In this document: piece by piece, positions 3,437-62,260 of the stretch | Numbering within the stretch: the stretch's first letter is position 1 | How the letters are laid out: every line of letters starts with the position of its first letter | Source of the DNA: Tepidisphaerales bacterium | GTDB lineage: Bacteria; Planctomycetota; Phycisphaerae; Tepidisphaerales; Tepidisphaeraceae | Length of the DNA: 64,000 bases | Assembly: GCA_038329845.1 (NCBI GenBank) | Contig: JBBQNJ010000012.1 | Coordinates: 1 to 64,000, forward strand | Direction: 5' to 3' | Program-made: the position numbers and the translations under genes | The notes under the pieces: model-generated | Told to the model about the DNA's origin: nothing | The model's input: only the letters and a program-made list of their open reading frames with translations | Databases searched by the model: none

Positions 3437-3690
3437 AATGTCACAGTGTAGGGATGTCGGTGCCGAAAAGACGACAGGGGGAGAAGCAGAATATTCCCGG
3501 TGGCGGCGGTGAGCCTGTCGATTCAGGCCAAATTTCGATCGCCGATCGGTCTTGGCGCTTTAAGAACCGGATTTGAAATCTGAAATTGAGATCGATCGGA
3601 CGAGCGCTTCTGGAGGTAAATAGAGCGGCTACCGGAGGAGTGTTTCGGGGGGGGGGCGTGGGTGCGGTTCGAGGGAATATTCTGGATGTC

Positions 3691-3792
3691 TCGAACGCCA
3701 CTCACTTAAGGGCCGAAGTTGGCGAACTCAACTGTATTCTCGGCCGATAAGGCGGCTTTCCCCAGCCTTTTCACGTTAAGTGAATGGCATTC
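3691..3792. mobile_element. MITE-like 102-bp element, copy 1. It has 17-bp terminal inverted repeats GAATGCCATTCACTTAA and is flanked by direct repeats of CTGGATGTC.
   Basis: Reverse complement aligns nearly base-for-base with 18751-18852. Termini gaacgccactcacttaag…cttaagtgaatggcattc. CTGGATGTC is present on both sides. Confidence 0.7.
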
Positions 3793-3883
3793 TGGATGTC
3801 CCCTTTGCCCAAGCGGGCAAAAAAAATCCCCAGCCAGAATGGTTGGGGGTTTGGGGTTACGTCCCATGTTTACAGGGGCGAGG

Positions 3884-4798
3884 TTAATGGCGACGGCAGG
3901 CGACCAGGGCTAGGGCGGCGAGGCCCAGAACGCCAAGCGAGGCCGGTTCGGGGATCACTTCAATGGTGCCGGTGGTGCCGGTGAAGGTGCCGGTGCCGTA
4001 GGTGTTGAGCTGGGCGACGGTGTAGGTGCCGTTGGAGAGGTTGTTGGCGCCGATGCTCAGGGCATCGACGATCCAGTTGTAGGTGTCGACGGCGATGGTC
4101 CCGCCAGCGACATTGAGGGAGGCCGGGGCGTTCCAGTTGCCCTGAATTTGCAGGGTTCCGCCGGTGATCCAGACATCGCCGTTGCCGACGGCACCGGCGT
4201 TGGAGAAGACCAACTTCCCTTTGACCATTTTCCAAGTGCCGGAAAAGGTGTTGGCGGAATTAGCGATGGTGGCGATGGAAGTGTTGTTGCTGGAGTTGAT
4301 AATAAGTTGGGCCGACCCGGTGACCTGGGCGCCAAAATTGAAGTGGCGGTCCTCGCTGGCGTTTCCGGGACTCAGCGTCGAGTCGCTCAGGACGGTGATC
4401 TTGCCGTTGAGGGTCTGGGTTCTTCCAGCCCCGCTGGTAAAGGCGGAGATCATCGCTCCGTCGAGCCGAAGATCGTTCACGGTATTCGTGTACGACTTGT
4501 CATTCGATGACTTCAGCGCCAGCGTGCCCCGGATGGTGAGCGAATCCCCGGCGAAGGTCGAGTTGCCGGCCTCAGGGGTTCGGATGACGTAGGTTGCGGG
4601 GTTGATGTAGTCATTGCCAGACGAAGCGGCCCCGTTGGGATTCCATATGGAAGTCGCGGTCCATCCGGCGGAAACGGCGCTGCCTTGCGACTCATCCTGG
4701 TAGATGGTCGCGGCCGGGGAGGATGGCGCAGTGCCAATAACGAGGGTCGCGCCCAAGGCGCAGGCCAACAGCGAATGCAATCGGCTAAAACGGTCCAT
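3884..4798 (-). CDS. Secreted PEP-CTERM sorting-domain protein with an Asn/Thr/Gly-rich beta-strand repeat body.
   Basis: N-terminal signal peptide. C-terminus VIPEPASLGVLGLAALALVACRRH is PEP motif + TM helix + basic tail. Confidence 0.75.
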   Translation of the reverse strand: MDRFSRLHSLLACALGATLVIGTAPSSPAATIYQDESQGSAVSAGWTATSIWNPNGAASSGNDYINPATYVIRTPEAGNSTFAGDSLTIRGTLALKSSNDKSYTNTVNDLRLDGAMISAFTSGAGRTQTLNGKITVLSDSTLSPGNASEDRHFNFGAQVTGSAQLIINSSNNTSIATIANSANTFSGTWKMVKGKLVFSNAGAVGNGDVWITGGTLQIQGNWNAPASLNVAGGTIAVDTYNWIVDALSIGANNLSNGTYTVAQLNTYGTGTFTGTTGTIEVIPEPASLGVLGLAALALVACRRH

Positions 4799-10791: not shown

Positions 10792-12030
10792 TTAGAAACC
10801 GCCTCCGCTGACGCTGCGTAGCAGCCACAGAAGCGGCGCGAACATCGCCAGGATCACCGCCACGATGATCAAGCCGATCACGATCAGCAGCAGCGGGGAG
10901 AGAATCGCCGGGATGGTGGCGATGCGATGCTGGGCCTGCTGCTGGTACATCCGCGAGAGGGTGGCGAGGGTTTGCGAGAGGCTGTTGCGTACGGCGGCGA
11001 TGGACATCGCGGCGATGACGGTGGGTGGGATTGCGCGCAGGTGAGTGGCGGCCGCGGCGAGCGATTCACCGCGCATCATCGCCTCGTGTAGCACTATCGC
11101 GTCGCGGCGCAGCACCGGGGTGGCGACGGCGTCGGCGGCGAGGTCAAGCGATCCGGGCAGGTCGATCCCGGCGTCGATGCCGAGGCGCATCGCATCGCAC
11201 CAGCGGGCGAGTCTCGCCTTCTGGACGATGCGCCCGATGAGCGGAAGATGAACGAGCAGTTGATCGCCCAGATTGATCCCCATCATCGCGAGAATCCACA
11301 CGCCGAGGATGCATACGACCAGGGCCGCGGCGACCACGGCGCTGATCAGGGGCAGGCGATGGGCAAGGTAGAAGAGGGTCCCGGTGAAGGCGGGCACCTG
11401 CGTTCGGAACCCCTGGAAGATCTCTTCGAAGCGCGGGACGACGTAGAGCAATAGAATGGCCATGACTCCGATCAACGTCGCCAGCACCGCGACGGGATAG
11501 GCCATCGCCCGCCATAGGGCTTGGCGAAGGCGAGCGATCATTTCCAGGTGGGCGCCGAGATTCAGCAGCATTTCCGGCAGTCGGCCGGAGCGGACGCCGG
11601 CATCGACCAGGCGGGCATACAGTCGCGGGAACTGGGCGCGGTGATGCTCGATCGCTTGGGGCAATGACACACCGCGATCCAGCTCATCGCAGACCTGCGC
11701 CACCGAGCGGGCCAGGCGGCCGCTGCGCATGTCCTGGGCGATGAGGCGCAGGCCCTGCTCCAGCGGCATCCCGGCCTGGGCCAGGCTCGCCAGTTGCTGA
11801 TTGAATGCAGCGAAATCGGCGCCGCGGATCGGCCGGGGTCGCGGCGGCGGGTCGGCGGGGATCATCTCGATCACGCGAAGGCCGAGGGACTCGAGGCGAA
11901 GGCGCGCCGTGTCCATGTCGGCGGACTCGATCGTGCCGGATAGCGGCGCGCCGTCACGCGATTGGGCGTGGTAGGAGAAGTTCAGCGGCGCGGGTGGGGG
12001 GTCGGGAGTATCGTCAAGCATGGGGATCAC
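10792..12030 (-). CDS. gspF: GspF/PilC-family inner-membrane platform protein, paralog 1.
   Basis: 412 aa, cytoplasmic N-domain + TM helices typical of T2SS/T4P platform proteins. Directly downstream of gspE. Confidence 0.8.
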   Translation of the reverse strand: MIPMLDDTPDPPPAPLNFSYHAQSRDGAPLSGTIESADMDTARLRLESLGLRVIEMIPADPPPRPRPIRGADFAAFNQQLASLAQAGMPLEQGLRLIAQDMRSGRLARSVAQVCDELDRGVSLPQAIEHHRAQFPRLYARLVDAGVRSGRLPEMLLNLGAHLEMIARLRQALWRAMAYPVAVLATLIGVMAILLLYVVPRFEEIFQGFRTQVPAFTGTLFYLAHRLPLISAVVAAALVVCILGVWILAMMGINLGDQLLVHLPLIGRIVQKARLARWCDAMRLGIDAGIDLPGSLDLAADAVATPVLRRDAIVLHEAMMRGESLAAAATHLRAIPPTVIAAMSIAAVRNSLSQTLATLSRMYQQQAQHRIATIPAILSPLLLIVIGLIIVAVILAMFAPLLWLLRSVSGGGF

Positions 12031-12075
12031 CTTGGGTCATCTGGGATTCCTCGCGCGGCGTCGGCGATGGCATCG

Positions 12076-13245
12076 TCAGGCATGGACGTGACCTCGGGTC
12101 ATTTGGGATTCTTCGCTCGGCGTCGGCGCTGCGGGGTTTGTTTCGGGCGGGCCGAGGACGCGAGAAACTTCGGCGTGATCGGTGATCCCTCGGGCGACCA
12201 GGTCATCGGCGGCTTGACGCAATGGAACATAGCCGGTCAGGCGCTGCGCCGTGCGGCGCATCGCATCGGCATCGGCGCGGTCCAGGATCAGTTGTCGCCA
12301 GGCCGGGTCCATCGCCGCGAGTTCGGCCAGGGGGGTTCGCCCGGCGTATCGTGCTGTGCCATCGGCGCTGGCGAGGCGACGGATCAGCCGCAGCGCCAGC
12401 ACGCCGTGGACGGCGCTGGTGAGCTGATAGGGCGCGATGCCCATGTCGAGCAGGCGCCCGACGGCGCCGGCGGGGTCGGAGGCGTGCAAGGTGCAGAGCA
12501 GGCGATGGCCCGACAGTGCGGCCTGGATCGCCAGGGCGGCGGTCGCGGCGTCACGGATTTCGCCGAGCATCAAGACCTGCGGGTCCTGGCGAAGAATACT
12601 GCGCAGAGCCCGCTCGTACGTCAGTTCGCCGAAGGGGGAAACTTCGATCTGTGTTATGCCGTCGAGCCGGCGCTCGACGGGGTCTTCGAGGGTGATGATG
12701 CTCAGTCCGGGATGCGTGTCGGCGATCAACTTGAGGAGGGCGTAGAGGGTGGTGGTTTTGCCCGAGCCGGCCGGGCCGGTGACGATGAGCATCCCGGCGT
12801 CGGCGGCGGCGTATCGGCGCAGCGCCGCGACGATGGGGGAGGGCAATCCCAACGCATCGAGAGATCGCGGTGCGGTCAGCTCGGCGGGCAATCGCACCAC
12901 CGCCCGAAGGCCGTGGGCGGTGGGGATCACCGCGAGGCGCGCCTCGGCGGGCTGGGTCGATCCCGGCGGGGCGGGGATGGCGAGGCGTCCTTCCTGGGGG
13001 ATGTCCTGGCGGTAGGTGAGCAACTGGGCCATGACCATCAGTCGGTTGACCATGGCCCGCCCGGCGGCGGCGGAATGGCGCTGGGCGGTCTCGACCAGCC
13101 CATCGACGCGAAGGCGCAGCTCGTATCCTTGCGCCGTCGGCTCGACGTGGATGTCGGAGGCCCGGCGGCGCATCGCCTCGATCAGCAAGCTCTGGAGAAT
13201 CTCCGGAGCCTGCGTGTCGCTCGCCGAGGATGCTGACGATCGCAT
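12076..13245 (-). CDS. gspE: Short GspE/PilB-family secretion ATPase (N2 + C-terminal ATPase domains only, no N1 domain, no tetracysteine motif), ComGA-like.
   Basis: Walker A GPAGSGKTTT. N2 motifs ASDIHVEP…RLRVDG. Asp box and His box context (ILRQDPQVLMLGEIRD). Confidence 0.85.
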   Translation of the reverse strand: MRSSASSASDTQAPEILQSLLIEAMRRRASDIHVEPTAQGYELRLRVDGLVETAQRHSAAAGRAMVNRLMVMAQLLTYRQDIPQEGRLAIPAPPGSTQPAEARLAVIPTAHGLRAVVRLPAELTAPRSLDALGLPSPIVAALRRYAAADAGMLIVTGPAGSGKTTTLYALLKLIADTHPGLSIITLEDPVERRLDGITQIEVSPFGELTYERALRSILRQDPQVLMLGEIRDAATAALAIQAALSGHRLLCTLHASDPAGAVGRLLDMGIAPYQLTSAVHGVLALRLIRRLASADGTARYAGRTPLAELAAMDPAWRQLILDRADADAMRRTAQRLTGYVPLRQAADDLVARGITDHAEVSRVLGPPETNPAAPTPSEESQMTRGHVHA

Positions 13246-16352: not shown

Positions 16353-18016
16353 TGTCCAGCGCGATTGTCCCGGCTTCGTGGTTGCCTTTGTTGGCTGAGC
16401 GTTCGTCGGCCAGCAGCGATTCGACGTTCTGGCTGCTGGCGCTGGTCCTGTTCGTCGCGGCGCTGTTCGTCACCTTCTTTCTGCTGCTGTTCAATCGCTA
16501 CAAGCGCTGCCCGAGCAATCGGGTGCTGGTGATCTTCGGCAAGATCGGCGGGGGCAACACGGCCCGCTGTATCCACGGCGGGGCGGCGTTCATCTGGCCG
16601 TTGATCCAGGACCACGCCTACCTCAGCCTCGAGCCGATCCAGATCGACATCGAGCTGCATGATGCGCTGTCCAACGAGAACATTCGCGTGAACATCCCCA
16701 GCGTCTTCACCGTCGCCATCGGGACCGACCCGGCGATTATGCAGAACGCGGCAATCCGGCTGCTGGGGCTGAATACCATGCAGATCAAGCAGCAGGCGTC
16801 GGACATCATCTTCGGCCAGCTTCGCCAGGTGATCGCGTCGATGCGCATCGAAGACATCAACCGCGACCGCGAGGCGTTTTTGCACAATATCCAGACGTCG
16901 CTGGAGCCGGAACTGCGCAAGGTCGGGCTGGTGTTAATCAACGTGAACCTGCGCGACATCACCGACGCCAGCGGGTACATCGAGGCGATCGGGCAGAAGG
17001 CCGCCAGCCAGGCGATCCAGCAGGCTCGCGGCGATGTGGCCGACCAGGAAAAGCTCGGCGAGGTGCGCGTGGCCGAAGCGCGGCGGGAGAAGGACATCCA
17101 GGTGGCCAACGCGTTGAAGACCCGCGAGATTGGCATGCGCGAGGCGCAGCGAGAGCAGCTTGTGCGGGTGGCCCAGCTCGAGAAGGAACAGAAGGTCGGC
17201 GAGCAGACCGCCGGTTACGAGCGGGATGTGCAGGTGAAGGCGGCCGAGCGTGAGATGCGCATCAGCGTCGCCGATGCCAACGCCAAGGCGATCGCCGGTG
17301 AGGCCAAGGCGCAGGCCGAGGTCGTCGCCACCCAGGCGCAGTTGCAGGTCAAGCAGGCCGAGGCGTATCAATTGGGCGAGACCCGCAAGCGCGAGAGCGA
17401 GGCGGCGGTGCAGGAAGCGCAGAACCGTGCGATGGCGAAGGCGGCTTTGGCCCAGGCCGAGCGCGTCGAGGCCGAGCGGCGGGCGGCGGTGGAGGCACCG
17501 GCCAAGGCCGAAAAAGCGAAGATGATCGTGGATGCCGAGGCGTCGGCGGAAAAGCGTCGGATCGAGGCTCAGGGCGAGGCATCGGCGATCTTCGCCAAGC
17601 TCGAGGCCGAGGCCCGCGGGCAGTTCGAGATTCTCGCCCGCAAGGGAGAGGGTCTCAAGCAGATCATCGACGCCGCGGGCGGGGCCAAGGAGGCGTTTCA
17701 GTTGCTCATGCTCGAACACCTCGATCATCTGGCATTGACCGCGGCGCAGGCGATCAGCAACATCAAGTTCGACAAGGTGGTGGTCTGGGAAAACGGCTCG
17801 GGGGGCAGCGGCAACGGCAACGGCAACGGATCAAGCGCCACCGGCAACTTCCTGCAAAGCATGTCGCGCACGCTGCCTCCGATGATGCAGGTGATGCGTG
17901 ACATCGGCGGGGTTGAGCTGCCGGACTACCTGGTCAAGCTCAAGGACGACGTCGTGGCGGCCAACGTCGATGTCCCGCCGGGGCCGACTCCCAAGCGGGA
18001 AGCCGGGGAAACCTGA
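16349..18016 (+). CDS. Flotillin-like SPFH/band-7 protein (YqiK/FloT type).
   Basis: N-terminal TM, SPFH domain, long Ala/Glu/Lys-rich coiled-coil. RBS aaggag upstream. The track ORF 15926.. has an artefactual N-terminal extension. Confidence 0.85.
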   Translation: MMSSAIVPASWLPLLAERSSASSDSTFWLLALVLFVAALFVTFFLLLFNRYKRCPSNRVLVIFGKIGGGNTARCIHGGAAFIWPLIQDHAYLSLEPIQIDIELHDALSNENIRVNIPSVFTVAIGTDPAIMQNAAIRLLGLNTMQIKQQASDIIFGQLRQVIASMRIEDINRDREAFLHNIQTSLEPELRKVGLVLINVNLRDITDASGYIEAIGQKAASQAIQQARGDVADQEKLGEVRVAEARREKDIQVANALKTREIGMREAQREQLVRVAQLEKEQKVGEQTAGYERDVQVKAAEREMRISVADANAKAIAGEAKAQAEVVATQAQLQVKQAEAYQLGETRKRESEAAVQEAQNRAMAKAALAQAERVEAERRAAVEAPAKAEKAKMIVDAEASAEKRRIEAQGEASAIFAKLEAEARGQFEILARKGEGLKQIIDAAGGAKEAFQLLMLEHLDHLALTAAQAISNIKFDKVVVWENGSGGSGNGNGNGSSATGNFLQSMSRTLPPMMQVMRDIGGVELPDYLVKLKDDVVAANVDVPPGPTPKREAGET

Positions 18017-18078
18017 GGCGGGCGGTTGCCGGCGCGGCGGAAACGGTGGATGTCACCTTTTCCCATGTCAGTGGCCGA
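17975..18078. repeat. Native flotillin 3' end plus downstream ~60 bp. A diverged copy of this ~100-bp segment lies at 18672-18880, beyond hicBA.
   Basis: ccgccggggccgactcccaagcgggaagccggggaaacc…ggaaacggtggatgtcaccttttcccatgtc versus gcgccgccgactcccaagcaggaagccgaggaaatt…ggaaacggtggatgtcac[MITE]gtggatgtcaccttttcccaagtc. Confidence 0.65.
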
Positions 18079-18671: not shown

Positions 18672-18880
18672 GCGCCGCCGACTCCCAAGCAGGAAGCCGA
18701 GGAAATTTGGGGCCGGCGATCGCCGGTGCGGGGGAAACGGTGGATGTCACGAATGCCATTCACTTAACGTGAAAACGGTCGGGAAAAGCCGCCTTAGCGG
18801 CGCGAGACTGCAGTTGAGTTTGCCGACTTTGACCCTTAAGTGAATGGCATTCGTGGATGTCACCTTTTCCCAAGTCGGGC
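18672..18880. repeat. Displaced, diverged copy of the flotillin 3' end (stop codon lost), interrupted by the MITE at 18751-18852.
   Basis: See 17975-18078. Confidence 0.6.
18751..18852. mobile_element. MITE-like 102-bp element, copy 2. 17-bp TIR GAATGCCATTCACTTAA and an 11-bp target-site duplication GTGGATGTCAC.
   Basis: Perfect TIRs gaatgccattcacttaa / ttaagtgaatggcattc. Flanking gtggatgtcac on both sides. An uninterrupted site (ggaaacggtggatgtcaccttttccc) exists at 18040-18066. Confidence 0.8.
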
Positions 18881-18951: not shown

Positions 18952-19824
18952 TTAATCGGGGGGGAGGTCGCGGAGTTTTTGGCGGACGAGGGCTTCGCGG
19001 CGGAGGGAGGCGGCGTCGAGCCAGTGGCGCAGGGCGTCGGGGTGCTGGGGGTCGTCGAGCATTTGCAGGAATTCGTCGATTTGATGGCGCAGGCGGAGAA
19101 AACCGGTGCGGAGGTTGTCGGCGTTGTCGTAGAAGATGTCGCGCCACAGGCCGCCGTCGCCGGAGGCGATTCGGGTGGTGTCGAGAAAACCCTTGCCGGA
19201 CAGGGGCAACGCCTCGTCGGATTGCATGGCCACCAGTGCCGCGGCGAGGGCGTGGGGCAGATGGCTGATGTCGGCGAGGCGGCGATCATGATCCTCGGGG
19301 GACAATTCCACGCAGCGCATCCGAAGGGTCTGCCAGAACTCGCGTACTTGGCGCAGGGCGTGCGGGTCGGTTTGCTCGGTGGGGGTGAGGATGCAGGTGG
19401 CGCCGACGAACAGGTCGGCGCGGGCGTACTCGACGCCTCGTTTTTCGCTGCCGGCCATGGGGTGGCTGCCGACGAAATGGGCTTTGCCGGCCAGGATTTC
19501 CTCGCCGAGCTGGACGATGGATCGCTTGGTCGATCCGACATCGGTGACGATGGCGCCGGGCCGGACCGCCTGGGCAATTTTTTTCAGCAGGGGGCCGAAC
19601 GTGCCGACCGGGGTGCAGAGAATGATCAGATCGGCCTCGGTCACCGCCGTGACGGGGTCGGATTCGGCGTGATCGATGGCGGCGGATTCGATGGCCGCAT
19701 CTAAACTTTGTCGTCGATGTCCATAACCTATGATTTTACAGTCCATTGCGGCGGCGCGGATCGCCAGTCCGATGCTTCCGCCCAGCAGTCCCACGCCCAG
19801 CAGGCTAACGGTCGAAAAGCCCAT
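18952..19824 (-). CDS. tyrA: Prephenate/arogenate dehydrogenase.
   Basis: N-terminal Rossmann GxGxxG (LLGVGLLGGSIGLA) and a conserved TyrA core (HPMAGSEKRGVEYA). Confidence 0.85.
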   Translation of the reverse strand: MGFSTVSLLGVGLLGGSIGLAIRAAAMDCKIIGYGHRRQSLDAAIESAAIDHAESDPVTAVTEADLIILCTPVGTFGPLLKKIAQAVRPGAIVTDVGSTKRSIVQLGEEILAGKAHFVGSHPMAGSEKRGVEYARADLFVGATCILTPTEQTDPHALRQVREFWQTLRMRCVELSPEDHDRRLADISHLPHALAAALVAMQSDEALPLSGKGFLDTTRIASGDGGLWRDIFYDNADNLRTGFLRLRHQIDEFLQMLDDPQHPDALRHWLDAASLRREALVRQKLRDLPPD

Positions 19825-21161: not shown

Positions 21162-21262
21162 CGCGGCGGAGAGGACCCGAAAAGCAAATTCTCTCGCAAC
21201 GCCGCCACGACGCCACGAAATACGGAAAAACTTTAACCTTTTGTCTTACGTTGCGTCGTGCC
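21162..21262. repeat. Copy 2 of the hairpin repeat family (see 228-335), between the convergent accA and purQ genes.
   Basis: Alignment to the reverse complement of 228-335. 12-bp stem cacgacgccacg/cgttgcgtcgtg with a ~30-nt loop. Confidence 0.6.
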
Positions 21263-31670: not shown

Positions 31671-31872
31671 TTTTGTAGGGTGGGGCTTGCCCCACCATTT
31701 CCGAATGGCAACGAAATGGGTAACACTTCAGCCGTCTGCCGCGATTCCCGTTTTTGCGGCCTCAGTCAAGTTGGGTCTGTCTGCTGACCCGCGATATCAG
31801 CCTCAGAATCAACGTGCCGGCATTTGGCTGAAATGTGACCGAAATGGTGGGGCAAGCCCCACCCTACAGAAA
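31671..31872. mobile_element. ~120-bp repeat element (core 31724-31840, 8-13-bp imperfect TIRs cacTTCAGCCG) embedded between two 30-bp perfect inverted repeats, each containing a GGTGGGGC-nn-GCCCCACC hairpin. Second core copy at 50965-51080.
   Basis: Core aligns ~92% to 50965-51080. Flanked here by direct CGAAATGG. Outer palindrome ttttgtagggtggggcttgccccaccatttc … gaaatggtggggcaagccccaccctacagaaa. Confidence 0.65.
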
Positions 31873-33727: not shown

Positions 33728-33825
33728 GAGCCGGATGATACCCGAGTCCGGGCCGTTGCGGGGGATGAGGGCTCTGGGCCGGATTGGCCCCGCGGGACGA
33801 TCTACGATCGCGATCCGATGGCGGT

Positions 33826-33980
33826 GGAGGTCGAGCGGATGATCTTGGGAATCACGTGCTGGGTGGTGAGGGTATCGGCGCGATCGAGCATTTGCGCGAA
33901 GATTTTTCTCCAGCGGCTCGGTTCGGCGGTCACCCCAGTAGCGGCGAAGGCTCAGGTAGACGTTGATACGCCCGAAAGAG
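33826..33980 (-). pseudogene. Diverged ~155-bp fragment copying the 3' end (last ~45 codons, stop retained) of the hypothetical gene at 34407-35156.
   Basis: ~85% nucleotide identity to 34407-34572 with one 1-bp indel. Translated tail …PKIIRSTSTAIGSRS* versus …MPKIVKSISSAIASRS*. Confidence 0.6.
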
Positions 33981-34037
33981 TCAAGACGCCCGAAAGAGTC
34001 AAGACGCCCGAAAGGGTCAAGACGCCCGAAAGGGTCA
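33963..34037. repeat. Tandem repeat of 4-5 copies of an 18-bp unit (ACGCCCGAAAGRGTCAAG).
   Basis: gagtcaagacgcccgaaagagtcaagacgcccgaaagagtcaagacgcccgaaagggtcaagacgcccgaaagggtcagg. Confidence 0.85.
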
Positions 34038-34118
34038 GGTGCATCGGATCAGGCGTGAGGCTCCGAAAGCCGAGGTGCTGCACTTGGAGTGGGCTTTCCG
34101 CCAACGCGGTGAGCGCAT

Positions 34119-34370: not shown

Positions 34371-34406
34371 CCTCGAGCTTGGGTGTTGCCGTTGCCGCGT
34401 CGCGGG

Positions 34407-35156
34407 CTAGGAGCGCGAGGCGATGGCGCTGGAGATGGACTTGACGATCTTCGGCATGACGTGATGGTTGGCCAGGGTATCGGCGCGATCGAGCATTTGC
34501 GCGAAGATTTTCTCCAGCGGCTCGGTTGGGCGGTCGCCCCAGTAGCGGCGAAGGATCAGGTAGACGCTGATGGCGTCCTCGGAATAGTCGCCGGTGCGGA
34601 CTTGGTAGCTGTTGGTGCGGGTGACCACGTCGATGCGGGCTTGCAGCCGGCAGTCGTCGCTGAGGGCGACGATGACGCTGGGCTGGAAATCGACGGGTCT
34701 GGCGCCGGGCTCTTCGGCCAGGCAAGACAGGGGGCTGTCGGCGAAGAGGCTGTCGGCGACGATCTCATCGTGATTGCCGGTGCAGTTCAGGTCGAACCCG
34801 AAGAGCAGATCGAGGTAGTCGATCTCGAGGGGGCTGACGCCGAGGTGGAACGGGGCCAGTTCGAGCAGCAGGCCATGCAGTTTCAGGGTTTCATCCAGGC
34901 TCTGGGGATTGACGTGGCCGCTGTAGAGTCGGCGCGCCTCGAGCGACGCCCAGCGATATGACGGGTTGCGCCGGTCTTCCTCGAGGGTGACTTCGCCACC
35001 CTCGCCTTTTCGCAGCCGCCCCATCGCCGGGAAAGCCTTTTGCACGCGCTCGAAGAAATGCAGCACGGTCTCCCGGCTGTTGGGCAGGGCAAGCTGCGAT
35101 CCGAGTCGCATGTTGACGTAGAAATCGTCGCAAAAGGGGCAATACGGATTCGACAT
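34407..35156 (-). CDS. Hypothetical protein (249 aa, N-terminal CPFC motif).
   Basis: Long ORF with balanced composition. Its 3' end is duplicated at 33826-33980. Confidence 0.6.
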   Translation of the reverse strand: MSNPYCPFCDDFYVNMRLGSQLALPNSRETVLHFFERVQKAFPAMGRLRKGEGGEVTLEEDRRNPSYRWASLEARRLYSGHVNPQSLDETLKLHGLLLELAPFHLGVSPLEIDYLDLLFGFDLNCTGNHDEIVADSLFADSPLSCLAEEPGARPVDFQPSVIVALSDDCRLQARIDVVTRTNSYQVRTGDYSEDAISVYLILRRYWGDRPTEPLEKIFAQMLDRADTLANHHVMPKIVKSISSAIASRS

Positions 35157-44798: not shown

Positions 44799-45140
44799 GG
44801 TGCGAGGTCTCCAGGTTGATAGAGAGACGTTGGGACCGGGGATCAGAAACCGCCCGCCCCCAGCGTGTTTCACGCCGTTTCGCGGATGCGTTGATCGGGG
44901 TGCGGTGAGTGACATCGTCAAGAGCGAAGGCAGCGCGGGTTGAACAAAACCTCCGCAACAAATCGCGGGCTTCGGCGCAACCGCCCCGCGTGGCGAGCTA
45001 CTGTGTCGAAAGATAAGAGTGCGGTCTTGCGGTGTCAAGAAACGCCACGGCCACCGCCAGGCGCCGCAGGCCGCCGGCGGTGGGCGCGGGGTAGGGGACA
45101 ACCAGAATGTTCCCGTCGCGGCGCTCGGCGGGGAGGGATC

Positions 45141-45212
45141 GCTCGGGGAATAATCTGGATGTCGCCGTGTCGCCGTGTCGCCGTGTGCCCGTGTCGCCGT
45201 GTGCCCGTGTCG
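45141..45212. repeat. Heptanucleotide simple-sequence repeat (CCGTGTCG/CCGTGTGC, ~9-10 units).
   Basis: gtcgccgtgtcgccgtgtcgccgtgtgcccgtgtcgccgtgtgcccgtgtcgccgtgtaccggtgtcgg, directly after an AATAATCTGGATGTC motif. Confidence 0.85.
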
Positions 45213-45348
45213 CCGTGTACCGGTGTCGGTGGCGAGTTTTCGCCTTGGCGCTCGCTTTTGCCGGCGATGCGAGAGGAGATTCGGGTCAGACGCGCACGGG
45301 GACGCGCTGCTGATGTGGGTCCGTCGGACGGCGACCCGCTCTTCGGGC

Positions 45349-50891: not shown

Positions 50892-50964
50892 ACGTTCGGT
50901 ATAAGTCTTTGCTAGACGGTCAGGGCCGGCGAGGCAACCGGCCTTGACCTTTCATATACTGCAA

Positions 50965-51080
50965 CACTTCAGCCGTCTGCCGCGATTCCCGTTTTGCGGC
51001 CTCAGTCAAGTTGAGTCTGTCTGCTGCCCCGCGATATCAGCCTCAGAATCAGCGTGGCGGCATTCGGCTGAAATGTTACC
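50965..51080. mobile_element. Copy 2 of the ~120-bp repeat element, immediately upstream of the response-regulator start codon.
   Basis: ~92% identity to 31724-31840. Flanking tatact / tatactct. Confidence 0.65.
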
Positions 51081-62029: not shown

Positions 62030-62260
62030 AGGCGACGCCCGCCCCGTTAGCCCGACGCGCCAGCGAGGGAATCCGGGGGTGCCGAAGCGATGCCCGCATC
62101 GCGTCCCCGTTAGCCCGACGCGCCAGCGAGGGAATGTGGCGAAGCGCCAGCGAGGGAACCCGAGCCGACACGGAATGCTACGACTACGACGCGGCCCGCG
62201 CGAAAACTACGACGCAGCCCGCGCGAAAACTACGACGCAGCCCGCGCGAAAACGCGGCGA
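62030..62260. repeat. Complex tandem-repeat region (2 units of CCCCGTTAGCCCGACGCGCCAGCGAGGGAAT, 3 of GCGCCAGCGAGGGAA, 3 of CTACGACGCAGCCCGCGCGAAAA).
   Basis: Direct reading of 62040-62255. Confidence 0.8.

Follow-up and report, generated by a model that had tools for sequence, protein, structure and literature searches.

Classical bacterial MITEs, such as the Correia elements, RUP, and the ERIC-like sequences, are ~100-200 bp in length, have TIRs and TSDs, occupy intergenic positions in many copies, and can form hairpins. The IS231-derived MIC231 cassettes of the Bacillus cereus group are non-autonomous, are bounded by IS4-family ends, and are thought to be mobilized in trans; they are larger elements, often with passenger genes. 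The insertion specificity of IS231 has been described (De Palmenaer, Siguier & Mahillon 2008; PMC2266710), and Table 1 of that paper gives, for the IS4 subgroup, a length of 1400-1650 bp, ends of the form -AATR--------WTW----, the YREK motif, and direct repeats of 10-13 bp; a marked specificity for the target arms has already been reported for this subgroup (PMC2266710). Here, we analyzed a stretch of 64,000 nucleotides from a Tepidisphaerales bacterium (contig JBBQNJ010000012.1, positions 1 to 64,000; hereafter the window), and we consider it ~90% probable that two repeats within it are non-autonomous MITEs that have the ends of an IS4-subgroup IS and a symmetric target preference and for which the transposase would be supplied in trans.

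The two repeats are found at 3693-3792 on the forward strand (copy 1, 100 bp) and at 18751-18852 on the reverse strand (copy 2, 102 bp) and are too short to contain a transposase gene. A preliminary description of this DNA had placed copy 1 at 3691-3792, which we correct by two positions, and had called the two copies near-identical and their TIRs perfect. The existence of two copies in opposite orientations was seen again on alignment, but they are only 86.3% identical (88 of 102 columns). The 17-bp TIR of both copies is GAATGCCATTCACTTAA, which is perfect at both ends of copy 2; in copy 1, the right arm (3776-3792) is perfect, but the left arm (GAACGCCACTCACTTAA, 3693-3709) has two mismatches (15/17). 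A target duplication had likewise been proposed and is present at both copies, although it is perfect only at copy 2, where the 11-bp sequence GTGGATGTCAC occurs at 18740-18750 and again at 18853-18863; at copy 1, the TSD is 10 bp, and the right repeat (TGGATGTCCC, 3793-3802) has one mismatch compared with the left repeat (TGGATGTCTC, 3683-3692). When the window was searched for GAATGCCATTCACTTAA with up to three mismatches, five sites were detected compared with 0.04 expected, and none of 100 shuffled sequences contained five or more. Further, a profile of the element family recovered exactly two full copies in the window (E = 1e-21 and 4e-23), and the total content of this family in the window is the two MITE copies and one IS end. 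The repeats are real and far above chance. Both copies are intergenic: copy 1 lies between convergent genes, i.e. an ORF ending at 3451 and a gene for a PEP-CTERM protein (3884-4798, reverse strand), and copy 2 lies 100 bp past the 3' end of the prephenate dehydrogenase gene (18952-19824, reverse strand). L103, a Logan contig from the organism of the window, ends approximately at the right TIR of copy 1, as judged from locus coordinates; multi-copy repeats are the usual break points of assemblies.

Same-ended elements were sought by scanning one genome per species (596 Gb) for GAAYGCCAYTCACTTAA. Matches in low-GC, unrelated taxa were at about chance level; given the length of 17 nt and the two two-fold positions of the query, we estimate that some hundreds would arise by chance in a search space of this size. 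The high-GC matches, among those listed, clustered in few lineages, namely Tepidisphaerales/Tepidisphaeraceae, Phycisphaerales/Phycisphaeraceae, Humisphaera, one MAG labeled Gemmataceae, and one MAG labeled Verrucomicrobia. Pairing of the TIRs among the matches listed yielded at least ~27 short elements of 78-406 bp from the genome scan, and a metagenome scan added nine more, giving a total of at least ~35 paired-TIR elements of this size range in at least nine MAGs (Phycisphaerae, Planctomycetota, and Verrucomicrobia) and nine metagenome contigs. Individual genomes contain several of them, with at least five copies in MAG Co_2688 and at least eight in JAIEMG01. Most of these elements have a different 10-11-bp TSD of their own, and among the matches listed, we counted 24 non-redundant sites with flanking direct repeats of 10-13 bp, the sequence of which varies by site (AGTAGTGTCCC, CACTGTGGGCT, TAGGCTAACCA, GGGACATCAC, and ACTCCCGACCC are examples from elsewhere). 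The interiors differ as well: between the 102-bp family of Tepidisphaerales Co_2688 and the window copies, the identity is only 61-65%, with a few conserved blocks, and the interior of the element at locus L058 is an unrelated, near-perfect fold-back. Such a combination of constant ends, interiors that vary, and duplications specific to each site is characteristic of MITEs.

A number of the same-ended elements (at loci L002, L038, L033, L072, L074, and L099) have no TSD or have inverted flanks, and secondary recombination is needed to explain them. In L099 (578-1844), a segment of 1087 bp is enclosed by two 90-bp MITEs that are inverted with respect to each other; the outer pair of flanks constitutes one TSD, and the inner pair is swapped, one member being the reverse complement of the other. 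This layout is the signature either of an inversion between inverted copies or of a composite unit. A 207-bp MITE variant, which ends in two TIR variants, TCACTTAA and TCGGTTAA, was seen in L072 at 1878-2302 (in tandem, with an 11-bp spacer) and at 3464-3670, and in L033 at 1758-1964; some of its copies have inverted rather than direct flanks. In the gammaproteobacterial sequence OZ243976 (L013, L016, L017, L061, L062, and L069), TIR-like sequences are found close to a related IS4-like transposase that is 28% identical to P0121 (see below). In L016, L017, L061, L062, and L069, these sequences occur twice, 21 nt apart, and L013 contains a 155-bp paired-end element between long poly-G runs. The OZ243976 elements are a different element family.

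A transposase gene flanked by matching ends, for which the preliminary description had suggested a search, was found in complete ISs of 1468-1513 bp. Together with the many further short elements with the same TIRs, these ISs bear out the proposal of a non-autonomous element. The IS in L086 is 1468 bp in length, has a perfect GAATGCCATTCACTTAA at both ends, and encodes P0121 (446 aa), and a 1513-bp relative in L087 has a 13-bp TSD. Contig L059 starts within such a gene, of which P0121 on L086 is the full-length form, and terminates in a perfect TTAAGTGAATGGCATTC that contains the stop codon. In MAG GL72_UP_metabinner_9, the same IS contains the ends of three contigs, in keeping with the usual breaking of assemblies at multi-copy repeats, and a more distant relative in L105 is flanked by a duplicated GGGACAGTCTC. 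P0121 matched PF01609 (2e-19) and the NCBIfam model for IS4 family transposases, NF033592 (131.6 bits with a cutoff of 115). For IS4-family membership, we considered a single ORF that encodes both the DDE pattern D(60-110)D(100-150)E and the motif Y(2)R(3)E(6)K. P0121 is encoded by one ORF of 446 aa with no frameshift, its DDE residues are Asp-119, Asp-195, and Glu-330 (i.e. D(75)D(134)E), and its Y(2)R(3)E(6)K motif reads YRARWQVEVNLRNLK; the YREK motif was present in 114/114 full-length relatives when either Lys or Arg was accepted at the last position.

A direct comparison of P0121 with InsG of Escherichia coli IS4 revealed 26% identity over 379 residues (E = 4e-18). The IS4 copy in K-12 has the ends TAATGCCAGTCAGTTAAG and TAATGCCGATCAGTTAAG and a 12-bp duplication, and GAATGCCATTCACTTAAG is identical to TAATGCCAGTCAGTTAAG at 15/18 positions. 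Further, positions 2-5 of GAATGCCATTCACTTAAG are AATG and positions 14-16 are TTA, which fits the end signature of the IS4 subgroup, the full copies of 1468 and 1513 bp are within the size range of the subgroup, and the direct repeats that we observed (10, 11, and 13 bp) fit its 10-13 bp. Based on the size, ends, YREK motif, and direct repeats and on the one pairwise match to InsG, the partner IS thus appears to belong to the IS4 subgroup of the IS4 family. No planctomycete members of the IS4 subgroup were found in the supplement of PMC2266710; ISs with these ends are common in Phycisphaerae and related Planctomycetota. The MITE interiors did not resemble the subterminal regions of the full ISs that we saw, which implies that the MITEs are not simple deletion derivatives.

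The IS end in the window is located at its very start. The 3' end of an IS4-family transposase gene occupies 1-189 of the forward strand, with 62 codons open from base 1 and a TAA stop codon at 187-189, and a reverse-strand TIR (GAATGCCATTCGGTTAA, 186-202, two mismatches compared with the MITE TIR) contains this stop codon. The preliminary description had noted a possible solo terminus at 186-207; this terminus was confirmed, although not as solo debris, as the transposase frame ends inside it. A stop codon inside the TIR is also seen in L059 and L086, and the same TCGGTTAAGC variant of the TIR occurs together with a TCACTTAA variant at the two ends of individual 207-bp elements (L033 and L072). 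The window-start peptide was detected by tblastn with P0104 (E = 4e-10), and its 62 residues align to the last 62 residues of full-length transposases of 444-451 aa, with 53% identity to P0232 over residues 390-451. Remnants of such genes are very common in metagenomes, where a profile of the 62-aa C terminus gave 258 matches, all of ≤121 aa; those in L085 (4774-5330), L031 (5490-5738), and L032 (28-172 and 955-1183) are 5'-truncated or frameshifted and retain only the last 70-120 transposase codons and the right TIR. The fragments of ≤121 aa had suggested a family of small proteins, which we rejected because an exhaustive profile search placed the C-terminal module at the very end of ~450-aa transposases; the fragment-only result is an artifact of word-index candidate selection and of the many decayed copies. 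Overall, the segment 186-202 is the right end of an IS4-type IS that is cut by the window edge and the remainder of which would lie to the left. Its TIR has two differences and its other 1.3 kb would lie outside the window, and it is possibly a dead remnant.

We also noted other repeats in the window. Just to the right of the IS end, 239-335 forms a 98-nt inverted repeat with 21163-21260 (91% identical), which could represent a leader or promoter region common to both sites or could belong to another repeat family. Three copies of a 71-nt repeat (455-525, 687-757, and 835-905; 65-83% identical) are interleaved in the first kilobase with two copies of a 57-nt repeat (763-819 and 899-955; 91%). 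A 119-nt repeat (31722-31840 and 50963-51080; 94% identical) gave no match in Rfam; on either side of its first copy lie the two halves of a 31-nt inverted repeat (31671-31701/31841-31871; 97%), made up of GGTGGGGC..GCCCCACC hairpins, and the 119-nt repeat may represent a second small mobile or regulatory element. A direct repeat of ~180 nt (33790-33967 and 34395-34571; 80-94% identical, 605 nt apart) lies alongside ~5 copies of the 18-bp tandem repeat ACGCCCGAAAGAGTCAAG (33950-34055), and we detected a 62-nt tandem duplication at 12010-12131 (83% identical) and three copies of a 23-bp tandem repeat at 62183-62253.

The preliminary description had pointed to similar sequence beyond the TSD at the two MITE sites and to an uninterrupted version of the site, and had suggested a target-site preference. 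About 20 nt of the flank are indeed alike at both sites. An 83-nt local repeat (17983-18066, forward strand), which is 88% identical to the sequence on either side of copy 2 (18677-18750 plus 18864-18873), contains a single unoccupied GTGGATGTCAC (18046-18056), which forms part of a small palindrome (GGAAAcGGTG-GATGT-CACCtTTTCC) and lies at its tip; this paralogous site gives a picture of the single-copy empty target. The preference itself was measurable in the 24 sites, several of which are from one population, so that not all are independent. When these were oriented by their core, A was found at -5, -4, and -3 in 16, 21, and 19 of 24, respectively, with G at -1, a core beginning GGGACA, and T at +3 to +5; in the 48 symmetrized arms, A occurred at -5, -4, and -3 in 31, 38, and 31 (p <= 1e-9) and G at TSD positions 1 and 3 in 34 and 31. 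A target matrix was then built from the 22 non-window sites. With this matrix, the sites of both window copies, once restored, scored 13-14 bits, a score reached by 0.005-0.01% of window positions, and the unoccupied site (18047) ranked 4th of ~128,000 candidate positions in the window; training on other genomes thus predicts the window sites. The top scores in the window were no higher than those in shuffled sequence, which indicates that the matrix is weak in absolute terms and supports a preference rather than serving as a site predictor, and the left arm of the copy 1 site (GGAATATTC) fits the consensus poorly. We conclude that the recurring flank is mostly a target preference of roughly the form AAAnG|GGGAC…|CnTTT, and that this preference of the enzyme accounts for the likeness outside the TSD at both sites and for the recurrence of TGGATGTC and GACATCCA. 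A general need for a palindromic (hairpin) target was considered and rejected, because the mirror complementarity of the arms exceeded the null (4.2 compared with 3.1 of 12) only through the AAA/TTT positions, without which it was 2.5 compared with 2.34 of 9. For a target consensus AAA-N20-TTT of E. coli IS4, a literature search returned no supporting paper, and our conclusions do not depend on it.

The way in which the MITEs would move can be proposed from what is common to the family. They carry only the 17-18-bp ends that an IS4-subgroup DDE transposase would recognize, and a full-length IS of ~1.47-1.5 kb would supply this transposase in trans. The enzyme is predicted, from its family, to bind both TIRs and then to excise the element, the 3' ends of which would be joined to the target strands with a stagger of 10-11 bp (up to 13 bp in the full IS); repair of the stagger would leave the flanking direct repeats. 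The preferred target is approximately two-fold symmetric, consisting of an A-tract, 1-2 nt, the duplicated core, a further 1-2 nt, and a T-tract, with the core starting GGGAC on one or both strands. We infer both the mobilization in trans and the cut-and-paste chemistry from sequence comparison, and the IS at the window edge may, on the same grounds, be the active partner.

An alternative source of the flank likeness (TGGATGTC…cttt.cccaag and GGAATAWTCTGGATGTC) would be that the MITEs landed in, or belong to, another repeat, for which a palindrome resembling a REP or a terminator, or a terminus of a second family of transposons, would be candidates. The nested repeats proposed in the preliminary description are partly borne out, in that copy 2 lies within one copy of the 83-nt repeat and copy 1 adjoins a GGAATAWTCTGGATGTC motif that is paired with a second, inverted occurrence. 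Two such pairs are present in the window, i.e. 3481-3497 (reverse)/3674-3690 (forward), 176 nt apart, and 45097-45113 (reverse)/45147-45163 (forward), 33 nt apart, the latter of which folds into a hairpin. (The motif at 45147-45163 had been placed at 45137-45155 and the repeat that follows it described as a heptamer; this tandem repeat, at 45160-45228, begins inside the GGAATAWTCTGGATGTC motif and has a period of 8 (TGTCGCCG, 7.4 copies) or 16.) Further, the 17-nt host motif is struck at the same nucleotide in two genomes, at 3674-3692 in the window and in Tepidisphaerales Co_2688 (L038, 31-47), with the element in opposite orientations, and 5/8 targets in the Co_2688/Ga0163144 population correspond to an arm of a hairpin of the form GGGACATCAC-loop-GTGATGYCCC, the upstream motif GGGGCAGGA being common to several. 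GGAATAWTCTGGATGTC is thus more than a good target and may represent an operator, a palindrome of the REP type, or a terminus of some other element. Against nesting as the source of the likeness stand the diverse TSDs found elsewhere (TAGGCTAACCA, CACTGTGGGCT, and ACTCCCGACCC), the palindromy of the arms, which is at the null level once AAA/TTT is set aside, the success of the matrix from other genomes at the window sites, and the scans for terminators and promoters at both MITE loci, which gave nothing relevant and no terminator-like sites. We consider nesting a doubtful source of the likeness, and one that complements the preferred reading, i.e. MITEs with IS4-subgroup ends and a target preference, rather than excluding it. 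We regard as equally tentative the proposal that this IS4-subgroup clade and its MITEs home to short conserved intergenic palindromes in Phycisphaerae (GGGACATCAC-loop-GTGATGYCCC and the inverted pairs of GGGGACAWCCAGAATNTTCCC), which, if true, would constitute a REP-like or terminator-like "safe-haven" targeting system; as there is no general need for a hairpin and neither locus has terminator-like sites, a REP-like host target is a minority possibility.

The ~20 nt of flank that are alike beyond the TSDs could also mean, as the preliminary description had itself considered, that both copies and their flanks are parts of one larger duplicated segment of the host. The interiors of the two copies are inverted with respect to each other, but their flanks have the same orientation, and the similarity of the restored sites is confined to 19-21 nt, ending ~20 nt outside the TSD; on these grounds a segmental duplication is effectively excluded, and it is further opposed by the TSD that each copy has of its own and by the identical ends found on unrelated flanks in many genomes. 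The strong predicted hairpins (z-scores of -4.4 to -7.5) and the intergenic location of both copies would also be expected of an sRNA, a riboswitch-like RNA, or a REP element that the host keeps for its hairpin and that does not derive from a transposon. The z-scores are a trivial consequence of the TIRs. An Rfam scan of the whole window returned no family at the gathering threshold, and RNAalifold on nine family members gave a covariation term of 0.05, only the invariant TIR stem being kept and the interior pairs not being conserved; the lack of an Rfam match and of covariation beyond this stem makes an origin as a structured RNA or host REP very unlikely. The occurrence of the elements in both orientations, their TSDs, and the presence of the same ends on a transposase-encoding IS argue against it as well.

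The value of these elements is in annotation. They account for the two intergenic hairpin repeats and for the odd ORF fragment at the start of the window, as well as for assembly breaks at these points in these organisms, and they provide a signature for masking in Phycisphaerae/Planctomycetota (TIR GAATGCCATTCACTTAAG, a 10-11-bp TSD, and the target AAAnG|GGGAC). Compared with E. coli IS4 and the IS4 subgroup (PMC2266710), the system is alike in its single-ORF, ~445-aa DDE transposase with YREK, in an IS length within 1.4-1.65 kb, in ends that fit -AATR--------WTW and that are close to the IS4 end, in long TSDs (10-13 bp here and 12 bp for K-12 IS4), and in target arms that are conserved outside the duplication. 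It differs in that the partner transposase has only 26% of its residues in common with InsG, its hosts belong to the Phycisphaerae and other Planctomycetota and not to the Proteobacteria, and the window elements are transposase-less derivatives of 100 bp; the target consensus was derived here from our own sites, apart from the published IS4 sites. Like MIC231, the MITEs are non-autonomous, bounded by IS4-family ends, and thought to be mobilized in trans, but MIC231 belongs to the IS231 subgroup, which has CAT ends, and the 100-bp window elements have no coding capacity. Classical bacterial MITEs resemble them in size, TIRs, TSDs, intergenic location, copy multiplicity, and the ability to form hairpins, whereas the elements described here have a far longer TSD (10-11 bp), a symmetric target preference, and, because the parent IS family is different, other ends. 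Overall, these elements are a further member of a kind that is already known, and they add one example of the target-arm specificity of the IS4 subgroup with no change of concept.
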